Origin: a virus
Taxonomy: Duplodnaviria > Heunggongvirae > Uroviricota > Caudoviricetes
IMG/VR virus record: IMGVR_UViG_2541047683_000001
DNA length: 38,758 bases
Direction: 5' to 3' (one strand)
Under the pieces are notes generated by a model. It had not been told where the DNA came from. It saw nothing but the letters and a program-made list of their open reading frames with translations, and made no database searches. A program made the translations under genes and the position numbers. Shown in pieces: positions 1 to 36,138 of this stretch; positions within the stretch are counted from its first letter, which is position 1, and every line of letters starts with the position of its first letter.

Positions 1-1053
1 TTACGGGGTAATGCCAACCGCTGCCGCCACTTTGTCGCCATTTGGTAACGTTGCCAGTGGATTGAAACGGAGCGCCGTTTCCAAATGATCCGGTGCCAGA
101 TGCGCATAACGCATAGTCATTTTTATATCGTGATGTCCGAGAATTTTTTGTAAGGCCAAGATGTTTCCACCCGACATCATGAAGTGCGCCGCAAACGTAT
201 GGCGCAGAACGTGTGTCAGTTGACCGCGAGGGAGAACGATAGACGTTTTTTCCATCACGGATAAAAATTGAAAATAGCAGTCTGTGAAGAAATTGAACCC
301 ATCGAGCGCCATGATCTCTTCATAAAGCTCTTTACTGATAGGTATGCTTCTGTTTTTCTTCCCCTTCGTTCTCACAAAGGTGATTCGATACTTGGTGACC
401 TGTGAGCGGGTAAGATTGATTGCTTCTCGCCAACGTGCGCCTGTACTTAGACATATTTTTACCACCAGTGCCAGAATTGGGTTCTGACGTTTGCAGTCAG
501 ACAGTAATTCGATAATCTGCTCATGTGTAAGCCATGCCATTTCCTTTTCTGCGATAGTGAATTTGCGCATCTTCTCTAATGGGTTTGGAAGTGTCCATTC
601 ACCCAGGCGGGAAAGTTCTCTGAAAACGCTGCTTAGATGGCTTTGCTCCAGGTTAACAGTAACTGGGCTTGCTCCTTTCTTCCATTTTTCACTGAAGTAG
701 ATTTCACCAGTAAGGCGTTTATCGCGATAGTGAGCAAACATTTTTGAGGTGAGATCAGTTGCAAGGGGATTTCCCAAGGCGTCAACCATCAACAGCAGCT
801 TGTTGTAGACATGCTGTCCGGCAGTAAGAGATTTGCCATGTAATTTGAACCATAGCTCAACCATATCTTTCAGTGTCCGACGATCCACTGATTCGCCCAG
901 CCAGGGCTTTGCTTCTATTTCCCCCATGGTGTATCGCTCGAAGGCCAGTGCTTCGCCTTTGGTGGCGAATTGTTTACGCACACGGCGTCCGCTACGTCCG
1001 GCGGGGTAACATTCGCAAAGCCATTTCCCTGTGGTTAGTTTTCGTACTGCCAT
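1..1053 (-). CDS. int: tyrosine integrase, P2 Int-like
   Basis: ORF track 1..1068 (TTG at 1068); first ATG at 1053 preceded by GGAGGG; P2 Int-like sequence with conserved catalytic region (HVLRHTFA ... MRYAHL); stop at 1..3 lies beyond the att core. Confidence 0.9.
   Translation of the reverse strand: MAVRKLTTGKWLCECYPAGRSGRRVRKQFATKGEALAFERYTMGEIEAKPWLGESVDRRTLKDMVELWFKLHGKSLTAGQHVYNKLLLMVDALGNPLATDLTSKMFAHYRDKRLTGEIYFSEKWKKGASPVTVNLEQSHLSSVFRELSRLGEWTLPNPLEKMRKFTIAEKEMAWLTHEQIIELLSDCKRQNPILALVVKICLSTGARWREAINLTRSQVTKYRITFVRTKGKKNRSIPISKELYEEIMALDGFNFFTDCYFQFLSVMEKTSIVLPRGQLTHVLRHTFAAHFMMSGGNILALQKILGHHDIKMTMRYAHLAPDHLETALRFNPLATLPNGDKVAAAVGITP
19..41. repeat. attL: attL core CGCTGCCGCCACTTTGTCGCCAT, inside the 3' coding end of int
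   Basis: 22/23 identity with 35904..35926; flanking bases differ on both sides. Confidence 0.6.
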
Positions 1054-1083
1054 AAAAATGCCCTCCAATGGAGAGCATTTTTA

Positions 1084-1099
1084 CTGTATACATAACCAG
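1084..1099. promoter_or_regulatory. weak LexA-box-like site CTGTATACATAACCAG between OLD-like gene and int
   Basis: CTGT-N8-CCAG, one mismatch to the CTGT-N8-ACAG consensus; AT-rich spacer. Confidence 0.25.
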
Positions 1100-1130
1100 T
1101 GTCAATGTATGTATATTATTAAGAATACAT

Positions 1131-3113
1131 TCATTTTGAGTTAAAAAAGCTTATAATTTCTGTCAGCCATGAAGGCGTATATTTTTCATTAATATCAAAA
1201 AGAGCATTGGTGTATTCTTGACAAAATTTAGTTTTATTTCCAGATTCCTCAAAATATCTTTTTATTATTAATTTTTGGCTAGTTGTCAGATCTAATATTC
1301 CAGCTGCAACATTGGACGGTAATGTGTTAATGTTCTCTATAAATGAGAATCTATTATCACCTTTCTTATAAAGTCGATGTAATGTTTTGTGGAAAATAAT
1401 CCCAGATAATACATCTTCAATTTCAGTTGGTGGAGAAACTCTATTGTCGGTGGTTTTTAGTAAGTCAGCATCACTTAAATCATCGCGTAGCAGCAGTCTT
1501 CTGATTCTGACTTGCGATATGCTGTCTGAAGTATCAAATTTATCATACGATTGATCTGTATCCAATAAACAAAAGACTTTTCCTTTTATTGCCGGCTTTC
1601 TGTCTTTTAAAGCTAAGATAAGATATGAGTAAATATCTTTGAGTGCAAATGACCCCCCAACACTTAATACAATTATATTTTTATTTTCTAAATTTTCAAA
1701 TTTAAGATGGGATTCAATGTATAATTTATCTGTACGTCCTTCGCACAATATCCAATTATAATTATTTTGTGATGTAATTGAAGTTATTATGGATTGAACA
1801 AGATCATGATTGCTTTTCACTTCTAAAGTATCTAAATATGAGCCTTTAGATTCTTTAACAAGGGTCGACAATTCATCTCGATAATACTCAAGGTTAAGGC
1901 ATTTTATCAATGCTTGATTTGGAGAAACATAAGTGGCACTACCGCTCATTGCTGCAGGAAGAAAACCATACCAATGAGTAGTACATATGGTTTGAATGCC
2001 TATTTCACTTATTTTTTTAATCTTCTCAAATTGTTTAAAGCAAGATGTCGCATGTAAAGATAACTCTGGTTCATCGACAGCTAATATTGTAGCTTGTTGA
2101 GTTTTTTTGGGATTGTCTTTTAAAAAACCTATGGCTAAATCAAGTAATGCCTTCCTTTTTTCACCAGAACTAAGATTGTGGACAGGTGTATCCCTATTGA
2201 TATTGTCAATATAATGAAGAATTTTGTCACTAAAGTAAGTTTCGATGATTTTAGAAATCATGTGGCGTTGAGTAAATGAATTCTGCCGTTGCGTCGGTCT
2301 TTTGAATTGATACTGCCCATCAAGCTTATATGATAGTTGATCAACAAAGTCATTTAAGTGACGATTTATTTCATTGATGTCACTTTTTTTAATTATCTTA
2401 CTGATTCGTTGTTGTAAGTTTTCTCCAAGTAAAGATTGCAATAACTCACTCTCTATTTTTGAATATTCTGACGTGGTAATTTCTGCAGGCAAATAAATAT
2501 AGTTATAGATATCTTTTATATTATCAAGCAAGCGATTTGATGTGTTCTTGAAATGGTTTTTCTGAGTGTTTGGGGAGCTTCCATCGGGAATTAGTTCATC
2601 AATTCTGGAATGATAATCCTCAATTGATTCAAATATTGACATATAAGATCTAGGTGCTTCATTCGCTTTTTCTTTTATGACTCCTAAAGGAATTAAAAAG
2701 TAATCTTTAGATGAGTAGTTTAACTCTAATATATTGCGATGTGATATAAATTTTTCGGCAATTGTTCGTTGCATTGAATTAAAGTCTTCACTTTCCAATT
2801 GCCATGTAATATCACTAATAACATCAAGAGCTTTATAAGTAAATGAATTAGACCTGAAGCGATCTTTACGTATGAGAAAAATTGGTACAATAAACGGTTC
2901 ACGAGTTTCGAATCCCAGACTCCTGGCATCATTATTTATATCAAGTCTGTTTATATCTGTTCTGTTAAGAACAACATCCAAAGCTTGCAATATTGAACTT
3001 TTTCCAACACCATTTTCACCAATAAGCCAAGATGAATTGTTATTCATAGCGATCGGAATATAATGTTGATTCCTAAAATTTTTGAAGTTTCTTAAAATAA
3101 CACCGATAATCAT
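1131..3113 (-). CDS. OLD-family protein: N-terminal ABC-type ATPase plus C-terminal TOPRIM-like nuclease domain (candidate anti-phage cargo)
   Basis: ORF track 1131..3116; ATG at 3113 with AAGGGA upstream, 19 nt after the repressor stop; Walker A GENGVGKSS; Walker B-like ILAVDEPELSLH; C-terminal ILCEGRTD glutamate motif and CLLDTDQ DxD motif; visibly AT-rich. Confidence 0.7.
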   Translation of the reverse strand: MIIGVILRNFKNFRNQHYIPIAMNNNSSWLIGENGVGKSSILQALDVVLNRTDINRLDINNDARSLGFETREPFIVPIFLIRKDRFRSNSFTYKALDVISDITWQLESEDFNSMQRTIAEKFISHRNILELNYSSKDYFLIPLGVIKEKANEAPRSYMSIFESIEDYHSRIDELIPDGSSPNTQKNHFKNTSNRLLDNIKDIYNYIYLPAEITTSEYSKIESELLQSLLGENLQQRISKIIKKSDINEINRHLNDFVDQLSYKLDGQYQFKRPTQRQNSFTQRHMISKIIETYFSDKILHYIDNINRDTPVHNLSSGEKRKALLDLAIGFLKDNPKKTQQATILAVDEPELSLHATSCFKQFEKIKKISEIGIQTICTTHWYGFLPAAMSGSATYVSPNQALIKCLNLEYYRDELSTLVKESKGSYLDTLEVKSNHDLVQSIITSITSQNNYNWILCEGRTDKLYIESHLKFENLENKNIIVLSVGGSFALKDIYSYLILALKDRKPAIKGKVFCLLDTDQSYDKFDTSDSISQVRIRRLLLRDDLSDADLLKTTDNRVSPPTEIEDVLSGIIFHKTLHRLYKKGDNRFSFIENINTLPSNVAAGILDLTTSQKLIIKRYFEESGNKTKFCQEYTNALFDINEKYTPSWLTEIISFFNSK

Positions 3114-3132
3114 CAATTGTCCCTTCTGAATG

Positions 3133-4068
3133 TTATTTACAAGTCATTATTACTTTGGCGATGATGTTAATTTCATCAATTTTACATTCGATCTTATTAT
3201 TCTTACTTTCTAAAGCAATTCGACTGTTAGGCAATCGAATTAAATTACGTATAGAATAAATACCATCAATGGCTACAAGCCATAAGCCATCGTTTACTTC
3301 TTCAAAATCGCTATTGATTAGGTAAATAACATTTTCAAATTCAATAATTGATATTTTGCTACTATCGTTTGGTAAAAGTGTACGATCAAACATTAAATAT
3401 CCGTTGGTAAATAGTTTACCATTGGTAATATTTTGTTTGGTTAGACAAGTTATTTGTGATTTTGCATCCATAAACATAGGACCTTCAGATTGCGAAAGCC
3501 ACCGCAGCGATGCCCCTGTTTCTAAAGCACACTTGATAATCCAGTCGGAGGGAAAAGTATCCCTCATATAACGATTGGCTAATGTACTTTTTGAGACACC
3601 AAGGTGGTCAGCTAAGGCTTGCCGGGTTTTGAATCCATATGCTTGGACAAGGCGTTCTATTGCTGCCTTACCCCCCTTATTTGGATTTATATTGAACTCA
3701 TTTCGGATGTTTTCTTTTCGAACCGTCTTATCACAATTCGAGATTTTTTTGGTTTCATGTTCATCATTGAGTTCATGTTGGTGTGAAACGCTTTCGTTTA
3801 TGCAATCGGTGCCAAATGCTAACCATTCGACAGTAACACCTGTTTCCATGCTACAAATGACAACCCAGTCTGCGGGGAACGTGTCACGTGCATATCTGTT
3901 TGCCATCGTGCTTTGGGAGATACCAATGTGGTTACAGAATGCTTGGCGGGAAGTGAAGCCGTAAGCCTGCAGAATCCGATCTATGACCTGCTGCCCTCCA
4001 CGATTCTGCATTATTAAAGCCTTCATATCATCGCTAACATGGCGAAATGTGTTTTTGTGTGTTGACAT
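3133..4068 (-). CDS. cI: phage 186 CI-like immunity repressor with tandemly duplicated N-terminal DNA-binding domain
   Basis: Two diverged copies of the module ..QAYGF..RQA...LG.S.ST.ANRY.RDTFP.DW...C..ETG...WL (about aa 25-85 and 128-190), then a C-terminal region; alternative in-frame ATGs at 4026 and 4011, true start uncertain. Confidence 0.8.
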   Translation of the reverse strand: MSTHKNTFRHVSDDMKALIMQNRGGQQVIDRILQAYGFTSRQAFCNHIGISQSTMANRYARDTFPADWVVICSMETGVTVEWLAFGTDCINESVSHQHELNDEHETKKISNCDKTVRKENIRNEFNINPNKGGKAAIERLVQAYGFKTRQALADHLGVSKSTLANRYMRDTFPSDWIIKCALETGASLRWLSQSEGPMFMDAKSQITCLTKQNITNGKLFTNGYLMFDRTLLPNDSSKISIIEFENVIYLINSDFEEVNDGLWLVAIDGIYSIRNLIRLPNSRIALESKNNKIECKIDEINIIAKVIMTCK

Positions 4069-4156
4069 ATCCGATTTGTGATCCTATTCTCCGAAATGTG
4101 AAGTTGAAGTCACGATTAATACCGGCTCACCACAAGCCAATAGGAGATGTTGCATC
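4069..4156. promoter_or_regulatory. immunity switch region between divergent repressor and apl/cox-like genes
   Basis: 88-bp intergenic region between divergently transcribed cI and apl-like genes; contains tandem TGAAGT TGAAGT and AGGAG RBS for apl; promoters/operators not resolved. Confidence 0.4.
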
Positions 4157-4378
4157 ATGACCCCTAACATTTCAATAACTCTGAATACGCCACATGTCAC
4201 AATCGAGCGTTATAGCGAACTTACTGGTCTTTCAATCGACACAATTAACGATATGCTGGCTGACGGTCGCATCCCTCGGCATCGCCTTCGGAAAGACAAG
4301 AAAAGAGAAAAGGTGATGATCAACCTTGCTGCTCTTACCGTTGATGCACTTACTGATTGCAATGTTGTATTCAACTAG
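4157..4378 (+). CDS. Cox/Apl-like small DNA-binding protein (excision/switch regulator)
   Basis: 73-aa ORF first in the rightward early operon, directly upstream of the CII homologue; AGGAG 10 nt upstream; basic C-terminal half. Confidence 0.65.
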
Positions 4379-11382: not shown

Positions 11383-11883
11383 ATGGAACAGGATTATATA
11401 GATCGTGGCTTTGGTTTATGGTCAAAACCTGGTGTCCCGCGTAAGGGATGGGTAAACGTAGGAGTGGAAGACCTAGAAGAAAGTCGAAAAATTTGTGATA
11501 TGTGTGGGAAAACAGAGATAAGGTATGTCCACATAATGTCACATGAGAATTACCCAGATTACTTAGAGGTAGGGTGCATATGCGCTGGTCACTTGGAGAA
11601 TGATTATGATTCTCCAAGAAAACGAGAAAGTGAAATTAAAAGTCGATCAGCCAAAAGAAAAAGATGGTGTAACTTACCTTGGAAAATATCTAAAAAAAAT
11701 CAATTTTACATAAAAAAAGATGGATATAGCATCATCATTCTCGACAAGGGTGATTATTTTATGGGAATGATAGTTGACGAGAGAACGCAAATTAAATATT
11801 GGACTAGAGAATGTAAAGATACTAACGAGGCGAAATTACTTTCATTCGATAGAATAACAGCGCTAATGGCAAGCTCTAAATAA
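11383..11883 (+). CDS. zinc-ribbon-like protein, first gene of a two-gene accessory cassette
   Basis: ATG 11383 with GGAGA upstream (track ORF starts 11371); cysteine cluster CDMCGK...VGCICAGH; lysine/arginine-rich tail; AT-rich. Confidence 0.65.
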   Translation: MEQDYIDRGFGLWSKPGVPRKGWVNVGVEDLEESRKICDMCGKTEIRYVHIMSHENYPDYLEVGCICAGHLENDYDSPRKRESEIKSRSAKRKRWCNLPWKISKKNQFYIKKDGYSIIILDKGDYFMGMIVDERTQIKYWTRECKDTNEAKLLSFDRITALMASSK

Positions 11884-11899
11884 TTTTAGGATTAATTAA

Positions 11900-13030
11900 A
11901 TGTATAATGTTGTATTGGATACAAACATACTCCATGCGGAAGGTATTCACTCACGAGGTATGGCAACTCTTAAAAAGTTAATAGATGAAGGCATTGTTAA
12001 AGTTCATTTGCCTGAACTAGTCGTGAGAGAATTTTCCACGAAAAAAATCACCGTAATAAATGAAGCCTATAATAAGGCGATTAATATTTTAAGAGGCACT
12101 GAACGCGAAGCAAGAGGATCCGAAGAGTCGATACTGCGAGATATTGATGAACTAAAAAACATCATAGACGACAAAGTGAAAGTACTTGATGAAAAAATTA
12201 ATGGTGCAGTTAGGCAATGGATTCAGGATTTTCGAATAAATATTATCCCGTTACATAGTGAATTTACATCAACTGTTTTTGAGAACTATTTTTGTGGCAA
12301 TGGTGTTTTTAAATCGAAAAAATCAAGAGAAGACATACCAGATGCTTTCATTAGCCTCAGTATCGAAAAGTTGCATGATGAAGTCGGTGAATTAATGGTT
12401 GTACTCAAGGATGCGTTGTTTAGAAAGCATTTGTCTGGCTTGGATGGGGTAAAAGTTTATGATAGCTTAGATGAACTTTTCCAATTGCCTAACATTAGAG
12501 CCAGTTTAGAAAATGAAGCCGCATCCTCTTTTTTGACATCAAGTTTATTCAGAACAGCGTTAGAAAACTTCTTACAGCAGAAACCGAATTATTTCGAAGG
12601 ATTCTATCTTGAGATTACTGAGGGAACAGAACTGCTTGCTGATTGGGTTATTGGTGCACATACCGAAATCAACGATTATGGACAAGTAAAGGATATTACA
12701 ATAAGTGATGTAATCAGAAAATCTGAAAGTAACTATTCAGCAAAAATTTCTTTTAAATTGGACTCTAATATCTCTTATGTAACGGATTACGGTGAAGTGC
12801 TTAAAATAGAGAGAGATAAAAACAGAAGCGCGGATTGTTGGAGTATGACAGGTGATGGCATGTGCGATCTTAATGAAAATGTGAATTTAACCTTGGAAGG
12901 TGACTTAAGTATTACCTTTCAAGGTGATTTCAATACATTGAAAAAAGAAGAATCCGAAACTTATTTGAATGAAAATGTTATTGTTATGACAATAAGTTTA
13001 TATGAGGCTATTATAGACAAAGTTCTTTGA
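11900..13030 (+). CDS. PIN-like domain protein, second gene of the cassette
   Basis: 376 aa; N-terminus MYNVVLDTNIL typical of PIN-fold first acidic residue, later EDIPDAF; AGGA RBS; 17 bp after upstream gene; AT-rich. Confidence 0.7.
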   Translation: MYNVVLDTNILHAEGIHSRGMATLKKLIDEGIVKVHLPELVVREFSTKKITVINEAYNKAINILRGTEREARGSEESILRDIDELKNIIDDKVKVLDEKINGAVRQWIQDFRINIIPLHSEFTSTVFENYFCGNGVFKSKKSREDIPDAFISLSIEKLHDEVGELMVVLKDALFRKHLSGLDGVKVYDSLDELFQLPNIRASLENEAASSFLTSSLFRTALENFLQQKPNYFEGFYLEITEGTELLADWVIGAHTEINDYGQVKDITISDVIRKSESNYSAKISFKLDSNISYVTDYGEVLKIERDKNRSADCWSMTGDGMCDLNENVNLTLEGDLSITFQGDFNTLKKEESETYLNENVIVMTISLYEAIIDKVL

Positions 13031-20992: not shown

Positions 20993-21428
20993 ACTGCAGA
21001 AGGTGGACGACTGGCTGAGTGCTTTGTTGGCGAATCTGGAACCAGCCGCAAGAAGCCGCATGATGCGGCAGCTGGCGCAGGAACTGCGTCGGACACAGCA
21101 GCAGAATATCAGAATGCAGCGCAATCCAGATGGCAGCAGTTATGAACCTCGACGGGTAACAGCACGCAGTAAAAAGGGGCGCATCAAACGTCAGATGTTT
21201 GCAAAGCTGCGCACCACAAAATACCTGAAAACTGCCGCCAGCGCCGACTCTGCCAGCGTACAGTTTGAAGGTAAGGTGCAGCGTATTGCCCGTGTTCACC
21301 ATTACGGCCTGCGTGATCGCGTCAGTCATAAAGGGCCGGAGGTCCGTTACGCAGAGCGTCGCCTTCTGGGTGTGAATAATGAGGTGGAAACAGTCACTCG
21401 TGACACCCTTATGCGCTGGCTGGGTTAG
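20985..21428 (+). CDS. S: tail completion protein (P2 gpS-like)
   Basis: 147-aa ORF following R, GTG start; gpS-like. Confidence 0.85.
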   Translation: MAELQKVDDWLSALLANLEPAARSRMMRQLAQELRRTQQQNIRMQRNPDGSSYEPRRVTARSKKGRIKRQMFAKLRTTKYLKTAASADSASVQFEGKVQRIARVHHYGLRDRVSHKGPEVRYAERRLLGVNNEVETVTRDTLMRWLG

Positions 21429-22330
21429 AGACTAATTTCTAACTCAGTCAATCTATTTCTTGCGTTATCGAGGTTAATCTCATCATGGATTGCTTTTCCT
21501 GCCCCGTCAGCAGAAGGGTATATGCTAGCCGCACTGAACCCTGCTTTATTAAGAAGCTGGTAAGCATTGTATACTTCTTTTATGGGGAGTGTGTATTTAA
21601 AGAATACCGGGTGCGGGAAATCCCCAGAAAGCTCCTCTAGGCTATGAATTGTAGCTGTCCGTCCTCGTCCGCCAGTATGTGGATGAACGCTAAAAAGCCC
21701 AAATTGCGCCGCTAAGTGCGGACTGATAGAACCTGCTGTTGAATGCAATTTTATTTGTGGGTGAAGATTTATAAACTCTTTATTAAAGGCCCATATGGCT
21801 AATTTACTGGATGCATTCCAGTTTTTATAATTAGCAATGCAGGAGCTAACTGCAAAGTAAATCGCTATGTAAGGGATTCGAGTCCAATCTAACAATCTTG
21901 TTGGCACGCCATGATGCTGTGCGAGAGCCATTAAGTCGAAAACTTCTGGATTTGGCCAAGATGATGGATTTATAAGCCAATAATCTTGATTATTTATATC
22001 TAAATGCAATCTGCGGAAGTCAGGGCTATTACCGGGGATACGGACACCTACTCTGTCACAGTGATGCACAAAAGACATTAATGTTATTATCTCGCTTGCA
22101 ACAATGTCATCCGACGTAGGTGATGTTCTTCTTGTTAAATATTGCGGTGGATTACGAAGTGCTGATGGGATCAAGCTCCAGTTGGCATCACCTTGCCCTC
22201 TATAAATAATATTATCTTTACAGTTTGGGTCTATCTTTTGTGTCGGTGATAGAGCATCCCAAAGTTCAGCTGCATTGTTAAATTCGCGTAGTGAAAAAGT
22301 CGGGTATTTACGTTCGCTCATTATTTTCAT
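21425..22330 (-). CDS. FRG-domain-like protein inserted antisense between S and V (candidate defence cargo)
   Basis: Track ORF 21425..22366 starts at GTG; first ATG at 22330; motif IIYRGQGDANWSLIPSALR resembles the FRG-domain signature; stop codon overlaps S stop; no clear RBS. Confidence 0.6.
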   Translation of the reverse strand: MKIMSERKYPTFSLREFNNAAELWDALSPTQKIDPNCKDNIIYRGQGDANWSLIPSALRNPPQYLTRRTSPTSDDIVASEIITLMSFVHHCDRVGVRIPGNSPDFRRLHLDINNQDYWLINPSSWPNPEVFDLMALAQHHGVPTRLLDWTRIPYIAIYFAVSSCIANYKNWNASSKLAIWAFNKEFINLHPQIKLHSTAGSISPHLAAQFGLFSVHPHTGGRGRTATIHSLEELSGDFPHPVFFKYTLPIKEVYNAYQLLNKAGFSAASIYPSADGAGKAIHDEINLDNARNRLTELEISL

Positions 22331-24233: not shown

Positions 24234-24831
24234 TCTGCTGCCACCGGGTTCAACACCACTGGAGCGCCGACTGGCGCAAGCGTGCAGCGGGATTTCTGAT
24301 TTGCAGGTGCCGCTGCGTGACCTGTGGGATCCGACGACCTGTCCGGTCAGTTTCCTGCCTTATCTCGCCTGGGCGTTCTCTGTGGATCGCTGGGATGAGG
24401 GCTGGACTGAAAGCGTCAAGCGCCAGGTGGTGAAGGATGCTTTTTATATTCATCAGCATAAAGGGACCACCAGTGCCGTGCGTCGGGTGGTGGAGCCGTT
24501 CGGCTTTCTGATCCGCATTATTGAGTGGTGGCAGACCGGAGAGACACCGGGCACGTTTCGTCTGGATATCGGCGTGCAGGACCAGGGCATCACTGAAGAT
24601 ACCTATCTGGAACTTGAGCGACTGATAAGCGATGCCAAACCATGTAGCCGTCACATGATCGGCATGTCCATCAACCTGCAGACCAGCGGCCCGCATTGGG
24701 TGGGAGTCGCCAGCTATCTTGGCGAAGAAATCACGATCTATCCGTATATCAACGAAACGATTATTTCCGGTGGCACCGCGCATGAAGGCGGGGCGGTCCA
24801 TGTTATTGACACAATGAGAGTGAATCCATGA
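24226..24831 (+). CDS. I: baseplate/tail fibre attachment protein (P2 gpI-like)
   Basis: 201-aa ORF between J and H, overlapping both. Confidence 0.85.
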   Translation: MNSLLPPGSTPLERRLAQACSGISDLQVPLRDLWDPTTCPVSFLPYLAWAFSVDRWDEGWTESVKRQVVKDAFYIHQHKGTTSAVRRVVEPFGFLIRIIEWWQTGETPGTFRLDIGVQDQGITEDTYLELERLISDAKPCSRHMIGMSINLQTSGPHWVGVASYLGEEITIYPYINETIISGGTAHEGGAVHVIDTMRVNP

Positions 24832-26333
24832 GCACAAAATTTTATACCCTGCTGACGGATATTGGCGCGGCGAAACTTGCCAGCGCCGCCGCGCTCGGTG
24901 TGCCGCTAAAAATTACCTATATGGCGGTGGGCGATGGCGGTGGAGTATTGCCAACGCCGGACGCAAAGCAGACGGCACTGGTAAATGAGAAACGCCGGGC
25001 TGCGCTGAATATGCTTTATATCGACCCGCAGAACAGCAGCCAGATTATTGCCGAACAGGTGATCCCTGAAAACGAGGGCGGTTGGTGGATACGTGAAGTG
25101 GGCTTGTTTGATGAGTCCGGGGCATTGATTGCTGTGGGCAACTGCCCGGAAAGCTATAAGCCGCAACTGGCTGAAGGTAGCGGGCGCACTCAGACCGTGC
25201 GCATGGTGCTGATTACCAGCAGCACGGACAATATCACCCTGAAAATCGACCCTGCTGTAGTGCTGGCAACCCGCAAGTATGTGGATGACAAGGCACTGGA
25301 GCTGAAGGTGTACGCGGATGATCAGATGGCAAAACATCTTGCCGCACCGGACCCGCATTCACAGTACGCGCCAAAAGCCAGCCCGACATTTACCGGAACC
25401 CCCAAAGCGCCAACGCCAGCGGCGGGGAATAATACCACGCAGGTTGCGACCACTGCGTTTGTACAGGCGGCACTGACGGCCCTTATTAATGGTGCGCCAG
25501 CCACGCTGGACACGCTGAAAGAAATAGCCGCAGCCATTAACAATGATCCGAATTTCAGTACCACCATTAACAATGCGCTGGCACTTAAAGCACCGTTGTC
25601 GAGTCCGGCACTCACCGGAACGCCAACAGCCCCCACGGCGGCGCAGTCGGTCAACAATACACAGATTGCCACTACGGCTTTTGTGAAATCGGCGATTGCA
25701 GGAATGGTGGGTTCTGCACCTGCTGCACTGGATACACTGAACGAACTGGCGGCGGCACTGGGGAATGATCCGAACTTTGCCACGACAATGCTTAATGCGC
25801 TGGCAGGTAAACAACCGCTGGACAATACGCTGACTCATTTGAGTGGAAAGGATGTAGCAGGTCTTCTCGCATACCTTGGTTTGGGAGAAGGTGCTCCAGC
25901 TATTGGCGTTCCGTTCTTCTGGCCCTCCGCTGCAATGCCAAATTCTGTCATCGACAGCTGGTCCGGTATGGTGTTTTTGAAGTTCAACGGCGCGAAATTC
26001 TCTGCCACTGATTATCCTGTGCTGGCGAAAGTGTTTCCTTCGCTGGTATTACCTGAAGCCCGCGGTGATTTCATTCGTATCTGGGATGACGGGCGAGGTG
26101 CAGACGGTGGTCGCGAATTATTAAGCTGGCAGGCAGCTACAAACTTTTCTCAGTTTGCCGGGAATATAGGCGAAGGTGCGGGACACGCAATTAACTTTCA
26201 TGATGGCATCGCCGGAAATCAGCCAGGATTTTCACGATTTAATTTCACCAGTAACTCTGTGGGTGATGGTGTGAATTTTGTTGCTGTCAGACCGCGAAAT
26301 ATTGCATTTAACTTTCTGGTGAGGGCTAAATAA
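24828..26333 (+). CDS. H: tail fibre protein (P2 gpH-like)
   Basis: Conserved fibre N-terminus MSTKFYTLLTDIGAAKLA; internal fibre repeats; followed by tail fibre assembly gene. Confidence 0.9.
   Translation: MSTKFYTLLTDIGAAKLASAAALGVPLKITYMAVGDGGGVLPTPDAKQTALVNEKRRAALNMLYIDPQNSSQIIAEQVIPENEGGWWIREVGLFDESGALIAVGNCPESYKPQLAEGSGRTQTVRMVLITSSTDNITLKIDPAVVLATRKYVDDKALELKVYADDQMAKHLAAPDPHSQYAPKASPTFTGTPKAPTPAAGNNTTQVATTAFVQAALTALINGAPATLDTLKEIAAAINNDPNFSTTINNALALKAPLSSPALTGTPTAPTAAQSVNNTQIATTAFVKSAIAGMVGSAPAALDTLNELAAALGNDPNFATTMLNALAGKQPLDNTLTHLSGKDVAGLLAYLGLGEGAPAIGVPFFWPSAAMPNSVIDSWSGMVFLKFNGAKFSATDYPVLAKVFPSLVLPEARGDFIRIWDDGRGADGGRELLSWQAATNFSQFAGNIGEGAGHAINFHDGIAGNQPGFSRFNFTSNSVGDGVNFVAVRPRNIAFNFLVRAK
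25377..25820 (+). repeat. two tandem 222-bp (74-aa) repeats inside tail fibre gene H
   Basis: Protein repeats aa 184-257 and 258-331 share the pattern P.FTGTP.AP....N.TQ.ATTAFV..A.......AP..LDTL.E.AAA..NDPNF.TT..NALA.K.PL. Confidence 0.6.
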
Positions 26334-27199: not shown

Positions 27200-28072
27200 T
27201 TAACTAGCGTGTAATAAGTTGAACAGGTTTTTAGTTACTTCGTTTTTAGTACTAAAAAACATATCTTTAAGGTCAGGTAATGCAAAGAGAGCATTTGGGG
27301 CATTCGGTACAACAATAGGAGGTTCATATCCGTTGTCATACATTTTCTTTAAAGCGGCTACTATTTTTTTCTGATTTCGATTGAATTCATTCATGTCAAT
27401 AAAAATTTCTCCAGATAGTGTCCCGTCATCTTCACGTAGTATCGCTGGTTTGACACGACATATCTGATCCATTTCTCCAGTAGAAAAACCGGCAATCGCT
27501 GCATTAAATAACAAAGATGAAGTAGCCCATTTTTCATATAGTTTTTTGATAGCCATGCTTCTGATTTTTTTATCGTTGATATATCCAATGCCACTGGCCA
27601 AAACTTCGGTTAATGGATTTTCCCCGCGAGTTACTCCAGACCAATAGTTGTGCATCCAGGGCGCATTTTGCTCAAGTGGAGAGCCGAGATAATCAGTGAT
27701 CCACTCTGAATCCACCTCTGTAAAGTTCAAACCATGAAAATCAATTTCTGCAATAGTATTTTTATAGTTTTGATTTAAACTCCAACGGTCGATTGCTATT
27801 TCAGCCATTTCTTTTGTTTTGAATAGGTATATTCCGGTTAGGCGGGAAACCTTATCTCTGAAATTGTCTGAGCGAACCTTTTCAAGAGCTAACTCATTTT
27901 GTAATTTTTCATTGTGATTATCTGATAAGTATTTCCTTACTAGATTGTAGAACCAAATAGATACTCCAAACTCACTTTTATAGCAAATTGATTCAATTCT
28001 TCCTATTGCAACCTCCCAGGCAACAATTGGATTATTTAAATTTAAGTAAGCATATAGTTTTCTCTGTTCCAT
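27200..28072 (-). CDS. hypothetical 290-aa protein, AT-rich cargo at the tail fibre/invertase locus (candidate defence or exclusion gene)
   Basis: Track ORF 27200..28171; ATG 28072 with AAGGAAA RBS (upstream extension is AT-rich and RBS-less); globular-looking, not fibre-like; no motif I recognise. Confidence 0.6.
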   Translation of the reverse strand: MEQRKLYAYLNLNNPIVAWEVAIGRIESICYKSEFGVSIWFYNLVRKYLSDNHNEKLQNELALEKVRSDNFRDKVSRLTGIYLFKTKEMAEIAIDRWSLNQNYKNTIAEIDFHGLNFTEVDSEWITDYLGSPLEQNAPWMHNYWSGVTRGENPLTEVLASGIGYINDKKIRSMAIKKLYEKWATSSLLFNAAIAGFSTGEMDQICRVKPAILREDDGTLSGEIFIDMNEFNRNQKKIVAALKKMYDNGYEPPIVVPNAPNALFALPDLKDMFFSTKNEVTKNLFNLLHAS

Positions 28073-30945: not shown

Positions 30946-33900
30946 TAATAACCTGCGCCTGCAGGTCATTCTTAATGCGGTTGACAAACTCACCCGCCCA
31001 TTCCGTGCTGCACAGGCCAGTTCGAAAGAGCTGGCTGGCGCAATCAGAAACTCCCGTGACGCATTAAAGCAACTCAATCAGGCGGGTAACAGCCTGGAAA
31101 AATTTCGCAAGCTGCAGGCCGATAACAAGAAGTTAGGCGACAGGCTGAACTATGCCAGACAGAAGGCTAATTTGCTTAGCTCTGAGCTGGAGTCGATGGA
31201 ACAACCATCACAACGGCACCTTGTGGCTTTAGGTCGGCAAACGCTGGCAGTCCAACGCCTGGAAGAACAACAAAAATATTTGCAGAAGCAAACGGCGCTT
31301 GTGCGTGCAGAACTGTACCGGGCGGGAATTTCTGCGAAAGATGATGCGGGAGCAACTGCCCGTTTAGCCCGTGAAACATCACGTTATAACCAGGAACTGT
31401 CGAAACAGGAGGCGCGGCTGAAGCGACTGGGGGAAGCTCAGCGCAGGATGAATGCAGCGCGTGCCAGTTATGCCCGTTCGCTGGAGGTGCGCGATCGCAT
31501 CGCAGGAGCTGGAGCCACCACCACGGCTGCAGGGCTGGCAATGGGGACGCCAGTGATGGCGGCAGTAAAAAGCTATACCAGCATGGAAGATGCCATGAAA
31601 GGTGTGGCAAAGCAGGTCAATGGTCTGCGTGACGATAATGGCAACCGCACTGCACGTTTTTATGAAATGCAGGATGCCATCAAGGCTGCCAGCGAACAGT
31701 TGCCGATGGAAAACGGTGCGGTGGACTTCGCTGCACTGGTTGAAGGTGGTGCGCGCATGAACGTCGCAAACCCTGACGACAGCTGGGAAGACCAGAAACG
31801 TGACCTGCTGGCCTTCGCCAGTACGGCAGCAAAGGCGGCAACAGCCTTTGAGCTGCCAGCGGATGAACTGTCAGAAAGTCTGGGGAAAATCGCCCAGCTC
31901 TACAAAATACCTACCCGCAATATTGAACAGCTCGGCGATGCGCTGAACTATCTGGATGATAACGCCATGTCGAAAGGGGCGGACATCATTGATGTGATGC
32001 AACGTCTGGGCGGTGTGGCTGACCGTCTGGATTATCGTAAAGCGGCGGCACTGGGGTCCACCTTTCTGACACTGGGCGCTGCGCCGGAGGTTGCAGCCAG
32101 TGCAGCAAACGCGATGGTGCGTGAATTGTCCATTGCCACCATGCAAAGCAAGAGTTTCTTTGAAGGGATGAATCTGCTGAAACTCAATCCTGAAGTGATT
32201 GAAAAGCAGATGACGAAGGATGCGATGGGAACTATCCAGCGTGTGCTGGAGAAGGTGAACGCACTGCCGCAGGATAAACGTCTGTCTGCCATGACCATGT
32301 TGTTTGGTAAAGAGTTTGGCGATGACGCGGCGAAACTGGCAAACAACCTGCCGGAACTGCAGCGCCAGCTAAAACTGACAGCGGGCAATGATGCGCTCGG
32401 CTCCATGCAGAAAGAATCCGACATTAACAAGGACTCACTTTCTGCGCAGTGGTTGCTGGTCAAAACCGTAGCACAGAACACCTTCAGCAGCCTAGGCGAA
32501 ACGCTGCGCCAGCCGCTGATGGATATTCTGTACACGGTGAAAAGCATCACGGGGGCGTTGCGCCGCTGGGTGGAAGCTAACCCGGAACTGACAGGCACAC
32601 TGATGAAAGTAGCCGCTGTGGTGGCTGCGGTTACCGTAGGCCTCGGCACCTTAGCGGTGGCGCTGGCTGCAGTGCTGGGGCCGCTGGCAGTGATCCGTCT
32701 GGGATTCTCTGTGCTGGGTATCAAAACGTTACCTTCCGTTACGGCAGCAGTAACTCGAACCAGCAGCGCGTTGTCCTGGCTGGCTGGCGCACCACTGGCA
32801 CTGCTGCGACGCGGGCTTGCTTCATCGGGCAACGCCGCAGGTTTACTTACTGCGCCGTTGTCGTCTTTGCGCCGCACGGCATCACTGACGGGAAATGTCC
32901 TGAAAACTGTAGCAGGTGCGCCGGTTGCACTTTTGCGGTCTGGATTATCCGGTTTACGTGCTGTTGCTGTGATGTTTATGAATCCTCTGGCGGTACTGCG
33001 CGGTGGACTGGTCGGCGCAGGCACGGTGCTGCGAGTACTGGCATCTGGTCCACTGGCGATGCTGCGCGTTGCCCTGTATGCCGTATCTGGTCTGTTAGGT
33101 GCTCTGCTCAGTCCGATAGGTCTTGTGGTTACTGCACTGGCGGGCGTGGCGCTGGTTGTCTGGAAATACTGGCAACCCATCACCGCATTTCTTGGTGGCG
33201 TGGTGGAAGGATTCAAAGCGGCGGCAGGTCCCGTCAGTGCAGCATTCGAACCGCTTAAGCCCGTGTTCCAGTGGATTGGCGACAAAGTACAGGCGCTGTG
33301 GGGCTGGTTTACTAATCTGCTGACGCCCGTTAGGTCGACCTCTGCCGAACTGCAGAGTGCAGCGGCAATGGGGCGGCGATTCGGGGAGGCACTGGCGGAA
33401 GGGCTGAATATGGTCATGCATCCGCTGGACTCCCTGAAATCCGGCGTTTCCTGGTTGCTGGATAAACTCGGCATTGTCAGTAAAGAGGCCGCAAAGGCAA
33501 AACTGCCGGAAAGCGTGACGCGTCAGCAACCTGCGACGGTGAATGCAGACGGTAAAGTGATGATGCCATCGGGTGGTTTTCCATCATGGGGATATGGCTT
33601 TGCGGGGATGTATGGCAGCGGCGGGTATATCCCGCGCGGGCAGTTTGGCATCGTCGGTGAAAACGGGCCGGAAATTGTTAACGGCCCGGCAAATGTGACC
33701 AGCCGGAGAAATACAGCTGCACTGGCTGCCGTTGTTACCGGAATGATGGGCGTTGCTGCCGCGCCAGCAGAACTTCCACCGTTGCACCCTTTGGCACTTC
33801 CCGCGAAAGGTGGAGAAGCAATTGTGAGTCGCGCAGCCACTGTGCCGCCCGTTTACAGGATTGAGGCACCGACGCAGATCATCATCCAGACGCAGCCAGG

Positions 33901-35926: not shown

Positions 35927-36138
35927 CGTTAAAAAACAGTGCTTCTAACATCATGATTTTAAAAGGCATAAATTTTAGACAACAAAAAACCCACCAACCT
36001 TGAACCGAAATGGCGGGGTTGATGGGCTCCACAAAATGGGGACATCAAAGAAAAGCAGTGGCACTAATTAAGACTGATGCCCTGCGGAAAAGTTCTGCGG
36101 TTGTGCAAAAAAATTTCATTTTCAGGGCAACTTCAGTT

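Follow-up and report, generated by a model that had tools for sequence, protein, structure and literature searches.

The window analysed here is a 38,758-nucleotide (nt) stretch of DNA (IMG/VR virus record IMGVR_UViG_2541047683_000001) holding a 186-like (Peduoviridae) Escherichia coli prophage, in which a 660-amino-acid (aa) protein of the OLD family is encoded between the repressor gene cI and the integrase gene int. We consider it likely that this gene is an anti-phage defence gene, specifying a single-polypeptide OLD enzyme that the prophage carries as cargo. Pfam matches, fold search and invariant residues together identify its product as an OLD-family ATPase-nuclease with predicted enzymatic activity. 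The window starts at the stop codon of a P2/186-type integrase and is 100% identical to the prophage beside rcdA in E. coli strain C4, where the identical gene bears the RefSeq name 'AAA family ATPase' (WP_021513000). On the lysogenic strand the order is cI (3133–4068), the OLD-type gene (1131–3113) and int (1–1053), all minus strand.

1131–3113, minus strand: OLD-family ATPase/TOPRIM gene, 660 aa (open reading frame list, identical RefSeq coding sequence, homologues at E = 0)
3114–3132, minus strand: spacer from cI to the OLD-type gene, 19 nt, CATTCAGAAGGGACAATTG (sequence)

A sequence-only reading of this DNA had proposed such a 660-aa reading frame between repressor and int, on the same strand and 19 nt after the repressor stop. 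The gene is real, intact and annotated in RefSeq, starting with ATG at 3113–3111 and ending with TGA at 1133–1131, and the distance is exact. All four motifs quoted in that reading were located, GENGVGKSS at aa 32–40, LAVDEPELSLH at 344–354, ILCEGRTD at 455–462 and CLLDTDQ at 515–521, and each sits on invariant columns of a family alignment comprising 38 sequences with identity down to 33%.

The protein comprises an N-terminal ATPase domain, a predicted nuclease domain and a C-terminal helical domain, laid out as follows.

1959–3113, minus strand: ABC/SMC-type ATPase domain, aa 1–385, with a helical insertion at aa ~85–300
2994–3020, minus strand: Walker A, in the ATPase domain
2154–2174, minus strand: signature LSSGEKR, in the ATPase domain
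2052–2084, minus strand: Walker B/D-loop, in the ATPase domain
1971–1982, minus strand: H-loop TTHW, in the ATPase domain
1404–1760, minus strand: OLD-type TOPRIM nuclease domain (predicted), aa ~452–570
1740–1742, 1554–1562 and 1416–1418, minus strand: TOPRIM catalytic-type residues E458, D518xD520 and E566, respectively
1134–1403, minus strand: C-terminal helical domain, aa 571–660 (AlphaFold2 models with predicted local distance difference test (pLDDT) >90, conservation)

Over aa 1–380, Pfam assigned AAA_15 (E 1.6e-17) and AAA_21, with weaker matches to SMC_N, AAA_23 and DUF2813. OLD-like_TOPRIM matched aa 454–519 at 23.9 bits when the whole protein was searched and at 25.2 bits with the C-terminal part alone, its gathering cut-off being 23.2 bits. 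The C-terminal helical domain (aa 571–660) had no Pfam match. In the 38-member alignment the invariant ATPase residues are G32, G35, G37, K38 and S39 of Walker A, S315-S-G-E318 of the signature, D347-E-P-E350 of Walker B, S352, L353 and H354 of the D-loop, and H380 of the H-loop. Across the TOPRIM and C-terminal regions, E458 (in C-E-G), D518-T-D520, R539, E566 (in T-E-I-E) and K627 are equally invariant; K627 belongs to the C-terminal helical domain, where F621, F630, Y634 and W649 are nearly so.

An AlphaFold2 model of the whole protein (pLDDT 84.8) places long helices at aa 181–296 between the two ATPase lobes. Foldseek matches spanning both halves of this model were found in the PDB for GajA (8u7i, E 3.7e-14), the retron Eco8 OLD effector (9lpa, E 3.3e-12) and Thermus scotoductus OLD (Ts OLD; 6p74, E 1.1e-09), and 305–320 residues superpose on Eco8 OLD, Ts OLD and GajA. 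The fold-comparison table gave 9.6 for the C-terminal region of Burkholderia OLD (6nk8; 159 residues, 2.8 Å), followed by the retron Eco2 RT-Toprim protein (8.9), AriB (8.6), Ts OLD (8.5) and GajA (6.7). Sequence searches of the PDB, with the single sequence or the family profile, reached no further than the P-loop and Walker B regions, in retron PtuA, AriA, SMC and Rad50; because they gave no TOPRIM match, the TOPRIM assignment rests on Pfam and fold comparison. Pfam, fold and invariant residues agree in placing a TOPRIM domain in the protein, which excludes the non-defence ABC ATPase lacking one that the sequence-only reading had set against its own proposal.

OLD proteins are sorted into classes by gene context (PMC10568477; Schiltz 2019 for the context-based definition): Class 1 proteins stand alone, Class 2 proteins accompany a UvrD-like helicase, Class 3 proteins belong to retrons, and in Class 4, PARIS, the DUF4435 Toprim is a protein of its own (PMC10568477). 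At the window locus, and at the loci of homologues with 57–66% identity in E. coli, Klebsiella variicola and Serratia ureilytica, the neighbours are limited to cI and int. A Vibrio cholerae homologue (38% identity) stands by itself on the opposite strand of a lambdoid prophage, and the Pseudomonas and Aeromonas homologue loci share no common or conserved neighbour. No UvrD-like GajB helicase was found in the operon or flanks of any homologue locus examined, no reverse transcriptase (RT) reading frame occurs at the window locus, and Rfam at its gathering threshold returned RybB and no retron RNA over the window. Gabija GajA (Class 2) was accordingly rejected for want of a helicase partner at the loci examined, and a retron effector was rejected as there was neither an RT gene nor an Rfam retron match. 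Because no helicase, RT, retron RNA or DUF4435 partner occurs here or beside the homologues, the gene is by the context-based definition a standalone Class 1-type OLD, as far as its sequence surroundings define it.

The sequence-only reading had left undecided whether the protein is a Class 1 OLD or a PARIS-like fusion. As a single-gene PARIS system, it would join an AriA ATPase to an AriB DUF4435 Toprim (Class 4), would have phage anti-restriction proteins, Ocr for example, as its trigger and tRNA as its substrate. The ATPase half does match the generic AriA model of PADLOC, at the same residues as AAA_15; this AAA_15 match is itself generic and shared with the AriA model. The profile comparison that had been proposed to settle the matter placed OLD-like_TOPRIM above its cut-off and left AriB and DUF4435 unmatched: DUF4435 (PF14491) gave no match at E <= 1 with the whole protein or at E <= 10 with the C-terminal part, and the PADLOC AriB models matched neither. 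GajA profiles matched only the P-loop and Walker B regions. The partner-gene check likewise returned no conserved partner at the window or homologue loci, and the overall fold is nearer to full-length OLDs than to AriA. These results favour the Class 1-type assignment and make a fused PARIS protein decidedly unlikely. The remaining whole-protein PADLOC matches were to mad3, Old (aa 287–494), AbiLi and, at the P-loop, many GajA and PtuA models; the C-terminal part matched only RT-Toprim_I-C, AbiLii and PDC-M38B. NCBIfam and PHROGs gave generic ATPase-level matches only, without a named family.

That the gene is acquired cargo, as the sequence-only reading suggested, is borne out by its deviant composition and by unrelated defence genes in the same slot of sister prophages. 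Relative to phage 186, the prophage in the window has 2.06 kb inserted at the cI–int junction. Parts of the 4.4-kb region are matched in 1,650 of 5,426 complete E. coli genomes, the whole of it in only 5. At the rcdA attachment site, prophages carry at least six types of cargo between cI and int. In sister prophages at the same attachment site the slot holds a 314-aa hypothetical protein, a GmrSD and HEPN pair, a SNIPE/DUF4041 protein, or DUF2971 and Panacea-domain proteins; in E. coli PCP07083 (L012:2127-3896, minus strand) it holds a 589-aa P2-Old homologue (37% identity), and in Klebsiella phage 4LV2017 a 349-aa hypothetical protein. In all examples examined the cargo lies on the lysogenic strand, 1–43 nt after cI. 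The cI–int slot is thus a cargo hotspot and the OLD-type gene is mobile prophage cargo, a 'moron'. In P2, old lies at the opposite end of the genome from int (31620–33380 versus 24462–25475), as the sequence-only reading had stated. Given the PCP07083 copy, P2-type old genes are not restricted to the cos-proximal hotspot.

The plan of the lysogenic operon bears on whether the protein would be present in the lysogen. The cI and int genes of phage 186 share one base and are transcribed from pL (maintenance) and pE (establishment), with the operon terminator beyond int and orf69. The corresponding features of the window are these.

1–1053, minus strand: tyrosine integrase (P2/186 type), last gene of the lysogenic operon (Pfam Int_N and Phage_integrase; RefSeq annotation)
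4147–4175, minus strand: putative pL-like lysogenic promoter TTGAAA-17-CAACAT (position relative to the apl start as in annotated 186 pL)
1077–1105, minus strand: promoter-like TTGACA-17-AAAAAT upstream of int (consensus scan; inside the conserved block that ends at 1111)

The pL-like sequence scores below the threshold of the consensus scan and is placed by position only; a pR-like TTGACA-17-TATTCT at 4062–4090 came from the scan and was likewise assigned by position. The OLD-type gene is preceded by a Shine-Dalgarno sequence, GAAGGG at 3121–3126, 7 nt before its ATG, and its stop codon is separated from the int ATG by 77 nt. No terminator-like site was found between cI and the OLD-type gene or between the latter and int, and the consensus scan found no promoter-like site in the 19-nt spacer. 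Terminator-like sites numbered 4, compared with a shuffled expectation of 2.2 +/- 1.7; one of them, at 3500–3480 inside cI, was considered as an operon break and rejected as weak and within coding sequence. From the short gap, the ribosome-binding site, the lack of a terminator-like site in the gap and the operon plan of phage 186, we infer that transcripts from the lysogenic promoters span cI, the OLD-type gene and int and that the OLD-type protein would be present in the lysogen. The conserved block containing the 1077–1105 site is kept in hundreds of prophages whatever their cargo, and this site could supply int with a cargo-independent promoter.

Homologues form a coherent family of 640–670 aa proteins aligning end to end (best E = 0; 5.8 billion proteins searched) and found in Escherichia, Citrobacter, Cronobacter, Klebsiella, Serratia, Pectobacterium, Yersinia, Aeromonas, Vibrio, Shewanella and Pseudomonas. 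Profile searching across 1.84 billion cluster representatives yielded 319 relatives at E <= 1e-30, these being from Gammaproteobacteria, and at the looser limit of E <= 1e-10 it yielded 542; of the best 150 listed, nearly all are full length. Not matched end to end by any defence-specific profile, the clade appears from these comparisons to be an unnamed, uncharacterised OLD branch of ~650-aa proteins; a literature search by accession WP_021513000 returned no match. In E. coli the gene is rare, occurring in 13 of the 5,426 complete genomes, 5 with the allele of the window and 8 with a 71%-identical allele (sensitive blastn, junction of the CI C-terminal domain and the gene).

Because synonymous differences are saturated (proportion of synonymous differences, pS, 0.72–0.80) while nonsynonymous differences stay at 0.22–0.29 (pN) between orthologues in three genera, the gene is under purifying selection, maintained rather than decaying. 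The ratio of nonsynonymous to synonymous substitution rates (dN/dS) is about 0.11 in the sole computable pair, saturation of synonymous sites having blocked exact values for most pairs.

Against a defensive role one may set a non-defence SMC/RecF-like ATPase serving the phage's own biology, for example by repairing or replicating DNA or by controlling lysogeny or excision. Such a protein would account for the place of the gene in the lysogenic operon and for its constant linkage to one type of CI C-terminal domain (described below); the ATPase half is as near to the heads of SMC, Rad50 and RecF as to OLDs, and an archaeal OLD-like ATPase with a cell-cycle role shows that not every OLD-family protein is defensive (PMC12796447). 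The phage type can nevertheless do without the gene: in 186 cI abuts int, and most sister prophages hold unrelated genes in its place. Homologues also reside in an unrelated lambdoid prophage and outside recognisable prophages, the TOPRIM active site is conserved, and carriage by 13 of 5,426 genomes is what would be expected of accessory cargo. We regard this alternative as very unlikely.

As a further alternative, the gene could be a passenger, decaying or silenced, that at present does nothing, being AT-rich foreign DNA kept repressed in the lysogen. Its GC content (0.315) and rarity in E. coli are in keeping with this, as is a close copy in E. coli ECCRA-119 (L021:1432-4613) that IS5 splits into open reading frames of 490 aa and 144 aa. 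Decay is contradicted by the intact 660-codon frame, by catalytic motifs invariant across 38 homologues down to 33% identity, by the excess of synonymous over nonsynonymous change and by the tight gap with its good ribosome-binding site. Moreover, GC is equally low in orthologues from all hosts (0.31–0.33 in E. coli, Klebsiella and Serratia), which indicates constraint and not recent arrival, and a functionless passenger is therefore highly improbable.

A defensive OLD enzyme, the reading we prefer, would operate as follows. The lysogenic promoters would transcribe the OLD-type gene with cI and int, so that the protein is on hand in the lysogen. Its N-terminal ABC/SMC-type ATPase, with the helical insertion, would serve as sensor and switch, and its C-terminal TOPRIM domain, to judge from the family, as a metal-dependent, two-metal nuclease. 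Upon infection by a heterologous phage, a phage-made cue would shift the ATP-bound or oligomeric state of the ATPase and license the TOPRIM nuclease, which may then cut phage or host DNA (like V. cholerae OLD (Vc OLD) and GajA) or host tRNA (like P2 Old and AriB). Cleavage would bring phage replication to a halt, by abortive infection or by direct damage to the phage genome, and the infected cell would probably be lost. DNA and tRNA are roughly equally plausible targets.

Several observations weigh against the proposed defence function or its individual steps. The TOPRIM sequence match barely clears its threshold, the C-terminal-region profile had no match among PDB sequences, and no PADLOC or NCBIfam defence-specific profile covers the protein over its full length. 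Transcription from pL is itself an inference, a promoter-like site lies ahead of int, and AT-rich DNA is often silenced in E. coli. The IS5-broken ECCRA-119 copy is one of the five closest copies. A tblastn search of 50,697 deposited phage genomes found no relative, all phage contexts of the gene being prophages, and the clade, this protein included, is uncharacterised. To the archaeal protein cited above can be added E. coli YbjD, whose Toprim domain is reported to be dispensable (PMC13261556).

The sequence-only reading also described the gene as AT-rich compared with its flanks. The contrast stands (GC 0.315, and 0.24 at third codon positions, versus 0.474 for int and 0.513 for the rest of the prophage, or 0.47–0.51 in the flanks), with one correction: the AT-rich tract reaches into the 3′ third of cI (3136–3535, GC 0.32). 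The repressor gene and the module have the following coordinates.

3133–4068, minus strand: cI repressor, 311 aa, with two Phage_CI_repr helix-turn-helix (HTH) domains and a CI C-terminal domain (Pfam, blastn breakpoints, CI alignment, GC)
1111–3535, unstranded: variable AT-rich module, CI C-terminal domain plus OLD-type gene (conserved flanks)

Similarity to sister prophages breaks off at ~1110/1111, immediately outside the TTGACA and 57 nt ahead of the int ATG, and picks up again at ~3536 inside cI, so that the 3′ part of cI (3133–~3535) belongs to the swapped AT-rich module. In an alignment of seven CI proteins the HTH domains are highly conserved and the C-terminal domains very divergent; the only similar C-terminal pair is that of the window and the locus with a 66%-identical OLD-like gene. 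A different, divergent CI C-terminal domain accompanies every cargo type seen, and the ATPase gene is present in all 13 E. coli genomes that have the window's CI C-terminal type. The swapped unit, as these alignments delimit it, is 'CI C-terminal domain plus cargo', and the AT-rich tract enters cI because the CI C-terminal domain swaps together with the cargo.

The tandem HTH domains of the window CI lie at aa ~25–86 and 135–199; phage 186 CI, at 192 aa, has one. Long CI proteins (292–316 aa) occur in four sister loci and Klebsiella phage 4LV2017, and short ones (196–198 aa) in two other sister loci.

The simplest reading of the pattern is linkage, through recombination in the conserved HTH-coding DNA and in int. 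Alternatively, the nuclease and the CI C-terminal (oligomerisation) domain might function as a single module whose enzyme monitors the state of its cognate repressor, for example being held inactive by the CI assembly or expressed in a fixed ratio with CI, and released when the anti-repressor of a superinfecting phage or an SOS signal disturbs CI, so that the cargo would guard lysogeny; because homologues occur in contexts without any 186-type CI, we give such a tie only the slimmest chance. As a swap site with a breakpoint inside the repressor gene, the cI–int junction of 186-like coliphages would be useful for cargo mining and helps to explain how immunity and defence modules recombine.

Other accessory loci lie elsewhere in the window. 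The classical P2 hotspot between the replication endonuclease and portal genes (~11383–13030) encodes a 376-aa PIN-domain protein and a 166-aa hypothetical protein, near which are a 141-aa hypothetical protein and a DinI-like gene; these genes may be a second defence cargo of the same prophage. An FRG-domain protein is encoded on the opposite strand at ~21425–22321, an accessory locus between the baseplate and virion-morphogenesis genes, and at ~27200–28072 a further accessory locus encodes a 290-aa hypothetical protein beside a truncated recombinase/invertase and tail-fibre gene fragments. The RybB small RNA gene (35981–36059, minus strand; Rfam, 104 bits) falls in the host flank past the ogr end of the prophage, and its presence there indicates that the window extends past the right end of the prophage into the ybjL-ybjM-grxA chromosome.

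OLD proteins with documented anti-phage activity include P2 Old (PMC12445682), Vc OLD (PMC12392090) and those of Gabija, retron Eco8 and PARIS (PMC10568477); ATPase and Toprim residues are needed in vivo for P2 Old, Vc OLD and PARIS. P2 Old, a Class 1 OLD, is a close parallel, being likewise a single-gene ATPase plus TOPRIM protein and lysogenic-conversion cargo of a P2-family prophage; it differs in length (586 aa versus 660 aa) and in locus, the gpA-portal/cos end in P2 as opposed to the cI–int slot. An hhalign comparison related the two with a probability of 97.9% (E 4e-13) in an alignment unbroken from the ATPase C-lobe through Walker B to the TOPRIM glutamate, and BLASTP against P2 Old (AAD03309) gave 26% identity over 174 aa plus the P-loop, with no TOPRIM alignment. 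The genuine P2-Old homologue in the cI–int slot of E. coli PCP07083, 37% identical over all 586 aa of P2 Old, is equally distant from the window protein, which by these comparisons falls in a separate clade and is no orthologue of P2 Old. P2 Old excludes lambda as a tRNA-Thr(UGU) anticodon-stem nuclease that responds to RecBCD inhibition (PMC12445682); neither this trigger nor the tRNA target can be transferred to the window protein from sequence.

Vc OLD, the V. cholerae Class 1 enzyme, is a DNA nickase that acts independently of RecBCD (PMC12392090). Its motif spacing differs from that found here (published K48/D313/D468/D470 versus K38/D347/D518/D520); on these published catalytic residue numbers identity with Vc OLD was rejected, and Vc OLD probably belongs to another clade. 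To Ts OLD (6P74, Class 1) the sequence match is confined to the P-loop (E 0.0032, aa 11–50), and the window protein has an extra C-terminal helical domain of ~90 aa compared with Ts OLD and Vc OLD. GajA (Class 2) and Burkholderia pseudomallei OLD (Bp OLD) differ in that no GajB helicase adjoins the window gene; the retron Eco8 OLD effector (Class 3) and retron Eco2 RT-Toprim differ in that the window has no RT gene or retron non-coding RNA. GajA is described as cutting DNA and AriB as cutting tRNA, and a two-metal nuclease mechanism has been proposed for Bp OLD.

The position of the gene also has precedents. A cI–int defence hotspot is described for P2-related, K139-like vibriophages (Rousset 2022, PMC9122126, section 12), and a 2026 preprint (10.64898/2026.02.27.708500) assigns 8% of P2-encoded systems to the interval from integrase to primase, the figure in its relevant passage being an aggregate for E. 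coli, Klebsiella and Salmonella P2-like phages. As here, these passages concern defence genes that vary between cI and int and lie on the lysogenic strand; they do not mention any exchange of the CI C-terminal domain along with the cargo. The protein type, the prophage-cargo role and the hotspot position are hence all already known. What is new is modest: an uncharacterised clade, its recurrent residence between cI and int in 186-like prophages across Enterobacterales, and its co-inheritance with a CI C-terminal domain.

Within the large OLD defence family, the single-gene (Class 1) branch is the one least understood. In the literature covered, reported phenotypes are limited to those of P2 Old, Vc OLD and E. 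coli YbjD (the last upon induced expression), and even these three disagree in what they target (tRNA or DNA) and in whether the trigger depends on RecBCD. A separate, compact clade in the natural lysogenic-operon context of an E. coli prophage is easy to test, and could show whether substrate and trigger vary clade by clade among OLD enzymes.

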